IMG/VR virus record: IMGVR_UViG_3300031697_000053
Reading direction: 5' to 3' (one strand)
Length of the DNA: 12,245 nucleotides
Origin: a virus
Below are positions 11,356 to 11,567 of this stretch, in pieces. The notes beneath the pieces are model-generated. The model saw only the letters and a program-made list of their open reading frames with translations. It had not been told where the DNA came from and ran no database searches. Numbering within the stretch: the stretch's first letter is position 1; every line of letters begins with the position of its first letter. A program made the translations under genes and the position numbers.

Positions 11356-11402
11356 AAACGAAAAAACCCGATAAAAAATTAATTTTTACCGGGTTTTTAT
11401 AC
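11356..11402 (-). terminator. Rho-independent terminator (aaaaacccg / cgggttttt stem with a ~19-nt loop), bidirectional in form. It sits between the promoter-4 leader and the tRNA-Lys block
   Basis: aaaaaacccg (11361-11370) pairs with accgggttttt (11388-11398). On the minus strand the stem is followed by TTTTTTCGTTTTT. On the plus strand it is followed by tttttat. Confidence 0.5.
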
Positions 11403-11421
11403 TTTATATCCTTCTTCTGGA

Positions 11422-11463
11422 TCATAGCAAATACCCGGTACCTGATTTAATAATCATCACCAT
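11422..11463 (-). CDS. Candidate 13-codon leader peptide (MVMIIKSGTGYLL) inside the leader downstream of promoter copy 4
   Basis: Minus-sense AUG GUG AUG AUU AUU AAA UCA GGU ACC GGG UAU UUG CUA UGA. The codons GGU ACC GGG UAU lie over the upstream half (11433-11440) of an antiterminator pairing. There is no obvious SD sequence, but no gene in this window has one. This is highly speculative. Confidence 0.15.
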   Translation of the reverse strand: MVMIIKSGTGYLL

Positions 11464-11534
11464 AAAAAATCTTCTTTTTATTATATTTACTATTTGTTGC
11501 ATTGAAGTTGTTATTTCTTTGTTTTTACTTATTG

Positions 11535-11567
11535 AATATTATATATACATCAAATTTAAAAAGTTTA
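11535..11567 (-). promoter_or_regulatory. Copy 4 of the bipartite promoter-like motif, pointing leftwards into the leader and the tRNA block
   Basis: Plus strand reads aatattatatatacatcaaatttaaaaagtttatgc. In minus sense this is CATAAACTTTTTAAATTTGA-TGTATATATAATATT. It lies about 70 nt upstream of the mini-ORF and about 140 nt upstream of the terminator. Confidence 0.45.

Follow-up and report, generated by a model that had tools for sequence, protein, structure and literature searches.

In a 12,245-nucleotide (nt) stretch of viral DNA, IMG/VR virus record IMGVR_UViG_3300031697_000053 (referred to below, at its full length, as the window), the minus strand between positions 11,567 and 11,356 probably encodes a multivalent transcription attenuator, in which ribosomes translating a leader peptide gate read-through from a promoter-like motif into a block of transfer RNA (tRNA) genes. 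Phage-encoded tRNAs are widespread and are usually viewed as constitutive supplements to codon usage or as replacements for tRNAs destroyed by defence systems, and to our knowledge the control of their expression is largely uncharted. The element described here, unit A, belongs to a design of which this phage has three copies (units A, B' and C) and a diverged relative another three. The evidence is entirely computational, and consists of the sequence features of these units, their conservation and covariation, and a concordance between leader codons and the anticodons of the tRNAs that follow. All unit A coordinates are window positions and all unit A features lie on the minus strand.

The leader open reading frame (ORF) of unit A, MQQIVNIIKRRFFMVMIIKSGTGYLL (11422-11502), has 26 codons plus UGA; it begins at 11502-11500, where the predicted transcript has its first AUG, and stops at 11424-11422. 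A first-pass annotation, made from the sequence alone, had described a 13-codon mini-ORF here; the reading AUG GUG AUG AUU AUU AAA UCA GGU ACC GGG UAU UUG CUA UGA is present (11463 to 11422), and its frame and UGA are correct, but it is the 3' half of the longer ORF. Codons 4-19 (11446-11493) form a regulatory run, AUA GUA AAU AUA AUA AAA AGA AGA UUU UUU AUG GUG AUG AUU AUU AAA, in which 15 of the 16 codons are decoded by tRNAs encoded downstream. The block that would be regulated (10273-11255, identified with ARAGORN and Rfam) comprises a pseudo-tRNA, tRNA-Lys(UUU), tRNA-Ile(GAU), a type II tRNA with anticodon CAU, tRNA-Arg(UCU), two tRNA-Phe genes (both with anticodon GAA), two more CAU tRNAs and tRNA-Val(UAC).

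Two contigs of the same phage, L030 and L147, extend past the right end of the window and supply the sister units. In unit C, a perfect copy of the promoter motif is followed by the leader ORF MKRFINIETVRNDWDWNDRNFPD, which is rich in Asp and Trp, then by a terminator, tRNA-Asp and tRNA-Trp. Unit B' contains an Asn/Glu/Phe-rich leader ORF, MKRNINIVNFEEQENNNFLHPSGI, and a terminator, followed by tRNA-Asn, a 78-amino-acid (aa) ORF, and tRNA-Asn, Phe, Glu and Glu. The first of these tRNA-Asn genes begins 2-3 nt past the U-run of the terminator, which leaves no room for a promoter, so it would be made only by read-through. Units A and B' are recognisably homologous in their DNA, terminator loop included, the B' and C leaders share the N-terminus MKR-x-INI, and a palindromic CCGG core is common to all three units.

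When the codon frequencies of 19 window ORFs are used as background, with mononucleotide shuffles as a second control, codons decoded by the block behind a leader are over-represented in that leader in all three units. The unit A leader has 15 such codons among 25 (7.6 expected, p=0.002; shuffle p=0.007), a count that takes one CAU tRNA as a lysidine tRNA-Ile2 reading AUA; the corresponding values are 11/23 for unit B' (p=0.0024; shuffle p=0.00025) and 6/22 for unit C (1.7 expected, p=0.005; shuffle p=0.0005), and the three enrichments give a Fisher combined p of 4e-6. Cross-block (off-diagonal) enrichment was significant in 0/6 comparisons, and the remaining two reading frames of each leader showed no own-block enrichment. 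The sole tRNA gene with a bare promoter motif and no leader encodes an initiator-like tRNA, an arrangement that fits attenuation because stalling during elongation cannot sense an initiator tRNA.

Downstream of the unit A leader ORF is an intrinsic terminator (11398-11362) with a stem of 16 base pairs (bp), a 5-nt loop, a T-rich tail (UCGUUUUUAA, 11352-11361) and a predicted energy of -17.6 kcal/mol, making it stronger than the first-pass annotation had stated; terminators lie between the leader ORF and the tRNAs in 6/6 units of the two phages. The perfect complementarity previously noticed between UACCGGGU (11440-11433) and ACCCGGUA (11394-11387) is correct, and the best duplex between the upstream 101 nt and the 5' arm of the terminator reaches -14.7 kcal/mol, compared with a shuffle mean of -6.8. 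Only 2 of 2000 dinucleotide shuffles equalled this antiterminator duplex in unit A, as did 39/2000 in B' and 0/2000 in C; in the relative, the same test gave 0/2000 for unit A (contig L180) and 11/2000 for each of units B and C (contig L188). Duplexes of 7-9 bp with the terminator 5' arm are found in 6/6 units, even though the three terminators differ in sequence, and in each unit the antiterminator co-varies with its terminator. Counted from the AUG, the antiterminator segment ends at 68-71 nt in the three units and L180 and at 62-65 nt in the L188 orthologs.

These sequences assemble into a predicted four-segment fold. Segment 1 (AUAGUAAAUAU, 11483-11493; leader codons 4-7) is the 5' strand of a 1:2, or anti-antiterminator, helix in minimum free energy folds. 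Segment 2 (11424-11440), formed by the last leader codons and the stop, could pair with segment 1 through GUAUUUGCUAU (11434-11424) or with segment 3 through UACCGGGU. Segment 3 is the terminator 5' arm, AAAAACCCGGUAAAAA (11383-11398), within which ACCCGGUA is the strand shared with the antiterminator, and segment 4 is the 3' arm, UUUUUAUCGGGUUUUU (11362-11377). In all units the minimum free energy structure combines the 1:2 hairpin, in which leader codons ~2-7 pair with the region at and after the stop, and the 3:4 terminator, and 2:3 forms in folds of nascent RNA. The energies of the alternative domains are comparable, at -13 to -21 (1:2), -11 to -20 (2:3) and -12.5 to -20 (3:4) kcal/mol.

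The predicted effect of a ribosome was assessed by folding nascent RNA that ends at the terminator loop, while a footprint of 27 nt was kept unpaired to represent the ribosome. In units A and C the antiterminator forms with the A-site at codons 1-18 and is lost once the ribosome has moved on to the final codons or the stop; the fold of the L188 units also switches with ribosome position as expected. The exclusive choice between antiterminator and terminator that the first-pass annotation proposed is found as 2:3 versus 3:4, but the system has four segments rather than three, and the sequence that it called segment 1 (here part of segment 2) can be sequestered by an additional upstream helix. 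A ribosome at that sequence, where the annotation had placed one, is predicted to favour termination, and it is a stall further upstream that would favour read-through.

The diverged relative came from a promoter-pattern scan of JGI metagenomes (L180), and a protein look-up provided its longer contig, L188. All three units have orthologs in this phage: for unit C, MKKFNNIESFNDWNDPSYPD with tRNA-Asp and Trp behind it; for unit B, MKRNININNNFEEQENLLRPSGI with tRNA-Asn and Glu; and for unit A, MKQITNIIKRFFMVMIFKSDTGYLL, which is in frame after a 3-nt deletion, with tRNA-Lys. Insertions and deletions that distinguish the two phages are 3, 3, 6 and 9 nt long inside the leader ORFs, compared with 6, 1, 2 and 1 nt outside them, so the frame has been kept through four such events. 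In the unit B leader, Asn codons have been lost in one place and gained in another while their total stays at 6, and the sole change of Phe to Leu is matched by a block in the relative that has no tRNA-Phe.

Base pairing in these units has also been kept across substitutions. The unit A 1:2 helix is 100% paired in 3 sequences across four substitutions, including a compensatory change from G-C to A-U, and the same C-to-U change also preserves pairing in the 2:3 state (C-G to U-A). In the core 2:3 helix, GGUACCGGGU/ACCCGGUAA is replaced by GACACCGGGU/ACCCGGUGU in the relative, whereby U-A becomes C-G and the helix is extended to 9 bp; this exchange was read by eye, as a gap that MAFFT places in the L180 terminator arm conceals it. 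Between the B orthologs, 95-100% of the 1:2 domain is paired, and one base pair has changed from A-U to G-C. Unit B of the relative has no promoter motif of its own, and we therefore infer that the attenuators of that phage act in series within one transcript.

Transcription of unit A would depend on the element that had been labelled promoter copy 4, TAAACTTTTT-N8-TGTATATA-TAATAT (11536-11567), which has a TATAAT-like element at 11543-11538. The repeated motif is real: the pattern TAAACTTTTT-N8-TGTATATA-(A/T)AATAT occurs on the minus strand at 2965, 6001, 7134, 9097 and 11567 (repeat family D1, 5 window copies), there are 4 window matches at <=2 mismatches when 0.02 are expected (the fifth copy is weaker), and three further copies lie upstream of the window. 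At the copy ending at 9066, the initiator-like tRNA starts ~7 nt past a TATAAA element, and at the 7134 copy the AUG of a 365-aa ORF lies at a similar distance from the equivalent element. Because gene starts have similar spacing from the 9097 and 7134 copies, the unit A transcript is predicted to start near 11531, from a motif whose activity is itself a prediction, and to open with an A-rich untranslated leader without an AUG (11503-11531). The same spacing suggests that the 9097 and 7134 copies direct synthesis of a leaderless tRNA and a leaderless messenger RNA, respectively. The region of motif and gene for the initiator-like tRNA (8990-9097, minus strand) encodes a mismatched 1:72 pair and a GGG/CCC anticodon stem, while the 7134 copy and the start of the 365-aa ORF occupy 7101-7134 (minus strand).

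These features are most readily combined into the following model. Transcription would begin near 11531, and the first AUG would open a 26-codon leader in which codons 4-19 specify mostly Ile, Val, Lys, Arg (AGA), Phe and Met. If translation is smooth, the ribosome would reach the last codons or the stop and cover segment 2, the 3:4 terminator would fold and an RNA of ~175 nt would be released. If the cognate aminoacyl-tRNAs are scarce, the ribosome would stall within the regulatory run, occupying segment 1 and freeing segment 2 to pair with segment 3, so that no terminator would form and RNA polymerase would enter the tRNA genes. The net effect would be negative feedback, in which tRNAs are made when decoding of their own codons is limiting, and the same device, equipped with other regulatory codons, would precede the two upstream tRNA blocks (units B' and C). 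Ribosome-mediated attenuation of read-through into the tRNA genes, which the first-pass annotation had raised as a question, is thus supported by the recurrence of the design, by the match between codons and each unit's own tRNAs, by the pairing between antiterminator and terminator and by maintenance of the leader frame.

Several observations weigh against this model or limit how far it can be taken. Compensatory changes, which the first-pass annotation had named as a check, are present in the relative, but shuffle controls for covariation are non-significant with the 2-3 sequences per unit provided by two phage lineages. The relative's unit A keeps an Ile/Phe/Met-rich leader and yet precedes only tRNA-Lys, then a protein gene, and Lys codons (3/24) are not enriched in that leader; therefore, either tRNAs were recently lost there or the concordance is partly luck produced by AT bias. 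Dropping AUA from the unit A count leaves 12/25 codons (p=0.022). In unit B' (L030) the masked folds lose the antiterminator from codon 13, where a competing fold is 1.3 kcal/mol better, and the ribosome-free nascent RNA of units A and C already favours 2:3 thermodynamically, so that the outcome in the absence of translation would hinge on folding kinetics. Promoters located between the terminator and the tRNAs are also conceivable for units A and C. In addition, promoter use, the transcription start, leader translation, termination, ribosome-polymerase coupling and the sense in which regulation works are each deduced from sequence features.

Among the alternatives, the ~175-nt promoter-to-terminator transcript could be a stand-alone small RNA with an incidental ORF, comparable to the stable RNAs of the T4 and T5 tRNA regions, a reading that the first-pass annotation had also raised and that we regard as unlikely. 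A promoter-like motif and a strong terminator are indeed present, the whole unit A is stably structured (z=-4.6), several stable RNAs of no assigned function are encoded among the T5 tRNAs, and released attenuator RNAs can reportedly work in trans, as is said of rnTrpL. However, most of the structural signal comes from the terminator (z=-1.9 without it), the unit has no Rfam match, and neither the in-frame insertions and deletions (4/4) nor the concordance of codons and tRNAs would be explained. Activity of the terminated leader as a small RNA, secondary to attenuation, is compatible with the model, and it is in this form that the proposal may survive.

It is very unlikely that each unit is a micro-protein gene in its own right, with a promoter and a terminator, whose 23-26-aa peptide acts in trans and which came to lie between tRNA blocks by chance. 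The ORFs do stay in frame in the relative, the B' and C products begin alike, and phage tRNA regions, that of T5 among them, often contain small ORFs of no assigned function. On the other hand, the peptides are poorly conserved: paralogs range from hydrophobic and basic (A) to acidic (B' and C), and orthologs accept V-to-T, G-to-D and I-to-F replacements, deletions and reshuffling of Asn. Their composition instead follows the downstream anticodons, compensatory changes occur in helices that overlap the ORFs, one of them non-synonymous and yet restoring pairing, and peptide function would leave the complementarity to the terminator arm in 6/6 units unaccounted for.

Nor do ordinary transcription-unit boundaries, in which a terminator of upstream tRNA transcripts adjoins an unrelated promoter and the complementarity and codons arise by chance or by local duplication of terminator arms in an AT-rich genome, offer more than a highly improbable account: AT-richness does favour Ile, Lys, Asn and Phe codons that phage tRNA sets often cover, the relative's unit A does precede tRNA-Lys alone and a palindromic CCGG core does recur in all three units, but the order is promoter then terminator rather than the reverse, dinucleotide-preserving shuffles match the duplexes in only 0-39 of 2000 cases across six units, the Asp/Trp enrichment of unit C cannot stem from AT bias, and off-diagonal codon sets and other frames are unenriched.

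A leader-peptide attenuator upstream of tRNA genes can be compared with several known systems. The enterobacterial leaders ilvL/ivbL, thrL, trpL, hisL, pheL and leuL are leader-peptide attenuators, of which ilvL and thrL sense several amino acids. The phage units resemble them in having a leader ORF with regulatory codons, 1:2/2:3/3:4 segments with the stop next to segment 2, a leader transcript of ~150-180 nt and, as in ilvL and thrL, several amino acids per leader. Unlike these leaders, the phage units would regulate tRNA genes instead of biosynthetic enzymes, so that the product fed back is decoding capacity; they are encoded by a phage, occur serially so that each tRNA block has an attenuator of its own, and probably operate in a host without Shine-Dalgarno-based initiation. 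As classical amino-acid operon leaders the units were rejected, both because they resemble these leaders neither in sequence nor by Rfam model (Trp_leader, His_leader, Leu_leader, Thr_leader and others) and because the regulated genes are tRNAs. In Rfam as a whole, no family but tRNA reached threshold, and a permissive scan returned chance-level matches only.

A further functional parallel may be drawn with the pheM leader of the E. coli pheST attenuator, in which a Phe-codon leader controls phenylalanyl-tRNA synthetase. Both systems would use leader-peptide attenuation to adjust a component of translation to the supply of specific aminoacyl-tRNAs, but pheM controls a synthetase gene in response to one amino acid, whereas the phage leaders would each control tRNAs themselves in response to several. 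T-box elements, which have no leader ORF and recognise uncharged tRNA by direct contact with a specifier loop and the T-box sequence, likewise control translation-related genes by a choice between terminator and antiterminator whose outcome reflects the state of a specific tRNA; by contrast, the sensing proposed for the phage units goes through the ribosome, and no T-box match was found even at E<=10.

In T4 and T5, as in the window phage, the tRNA genes are interspersed with promoters and with short ORFs and small RNAs that have no assigned function. The T5 small ORFs that were inspected encode 27-96 aa and run directly into the next tRNA, with no terminator between and no systematic match to its anticodon; lacking both terminator and codon match, they were rejected as a precedent. 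One of them, T5.070 (L195 7628-7756, minus strand), is a 42-aa ORF with 5 Cys codons directly 5' of tRNA-Cys and no terminator; this match is probably a coincidence, since the ORF resembles a small zinc-ribbon protein. Full-text searches of the literature, with most subscription-journal papers outside their scope, turned up no description of phage or bacterial tRNA genes under leader-peptide control, in agreement with the first-pass remark that its author had not seen the arrangement described. Given the absence of an Rfam match, the different design in T5 and this literature result, the class of mechanism is known while its target, tRNA genes, and its phage context appear to be new.

The genome that carries these units has 33% G+C in the window, and its minus strand encodes all genes except a holin/endolysin pair; 14 tRNA genes lie within 8990-12086 (ARAGORN, Rfam). 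A Shine-Dalgarno motif is present at none of the gene starts and the regions 5' of genes are A-rich, from which we infer a Bacteroidota-like host. Contigs identical to the window phage come from Antarctic saline-lake metagenomes and one ENA study, and unit A is identical in all of them, bar a 12-nt repeat-copy difference in L154. The INPHARED phage collection contained no similar DNA in near or distant search mode, and IMG/VR yielded no relative when searched by terminator sequence, by the 178-aa and 365-aa proteins, by terminator consensus or by promoter pattern. The 78-aa, 144-aa and 198-aa flanking proteins have few homologs, and the contigs that encode these (L148-L153, L190, L191 and L194) were set aside as they do not contain the units.

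Several other features surround the unit A terminator and the tRNAs behind it. Just 3' of the terminator is a 12-nt tandem repeat, ACATATAAACAA, in 3 copies (11293-11328, minus strand); L154 is 12 nt shorter at this point, most simply because it has 2 copies, and copy number thus appears to vary between strains. A 13-bp hairpin without a U-tail, GACCU-A-CAUAACUA AUUG UAGUUAUG AGGUC (11258-11289, minus strand), lies directly 5' of the pseudo-tRNA and may be a processing signal; a similar sequence precedes tRNA-Lys in L180. The pseudo-tRNA itself (11196-11255, minus strand) retains its acceptor, D and T arms, lacks an anticodon arm and scores 24.5 bits with Rfam, under the gathering score. Its 5' half is 92% identical to the adjoining tRNA-Lys, and an intact tRNA-Lys occupies the homologous position in L180. 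Two type II tRNAs of 88-89 nt have long variable arms, one with anticodon GUU (Asn; 11999-12086, minus strand) and the other with CAU (Met/Ile2; 10915-11003, minus strand). The former, whose 7-bp acceptor stem is perfect and whose discriminator base is G, as in serine tRNAs, is kept in the relative (L188 613-700); both could be recoding or decoy tRNAs.

A second ORF overlaps the leader stop in unit A and runs through the terminator (11321-11425, minus strand; ATGA overlap, MIQKKDIKYKNPVKINFLSGFF...), and unit B' has a counterpart (L030 696-767; TAATG overlap, MLFFKNFYKPVEINFFTGFF...). The two are alike because the terminator loop AAATTAATTTTTT is conserved, and they are probably not genes. On the 5' side of promoter copy 4, positions 11590-11643 (minus strand) encode ATGGAAAAATTAATACCA fused to ...GGAGATGCAAAAGGTGAATGGGAATAA, which match the two ends of a 119-aa gene. 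L188 has this gene intact, and the adjoining 144-aa gene is likewise missing from the window phage. This spacer is therefore best read as a deletion scar left by the gene pair.

The tRNA region shows other signs of rearrangement. Assemblies of the window phage (L026-L031, L154) mostly break inside it, near window positions 12250-13180. Strain mosaicism is evident in L030, where a variant of the 78-aa ORF that is visibly unlike that of the window phage is joined to otherwise identical sequence, and in L170 unit B' is joined to unrelated sequence. A holin-like gene and a LysM endolysin gene (9245-10263, plus strand) lie on the opposite strand inside the tRNA region, and their products are 67-93% identical to the translated cassette of ~70-kilobase IMG/VR phages (L001-L003). 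Within the fetched flanks these phages have nothing else in common with the window phage, and the lysis module looks mobile; they were rejected as relatives, as they share the common lysis cassette only and have neither the promoter motif nor the units. Elsewhere in the window, an 804-aa protein (487-2901, minus strand) has precomputed Pfam matches to the major vault protein shoulder domain, with weaker ones to Vault_3 and Band_7, and no PHROG match, which is unusual for a phage.

A broader proposal, which we offer tentatively and consider doubtful in its full form, is that tRNA arrays of this kind are expressed on demand, with serial multivalent attenuators sensing decoding in real time and opening individual blocks when their tRNAs become limiting, including when a host anticodon nuclease or another tRNA-depleting defence is at work. 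The attenuators would then be both the sensor arm of a counter-defence and a homeostat of codon supply. If the attenuator model is true, it would provide direct feedback from decoding capacity to tRNA synthesis, and would extend textbook attenuation to viruses and to a new class of target, the RNA genes that serve translation. It would also define a signature, a short ORF whose codons match the anticodons encoded behind a terminator, for which phage and bacterial genomes could be mined, and it suggests compact, programmable and codon-specific sensors for synthetic biology.

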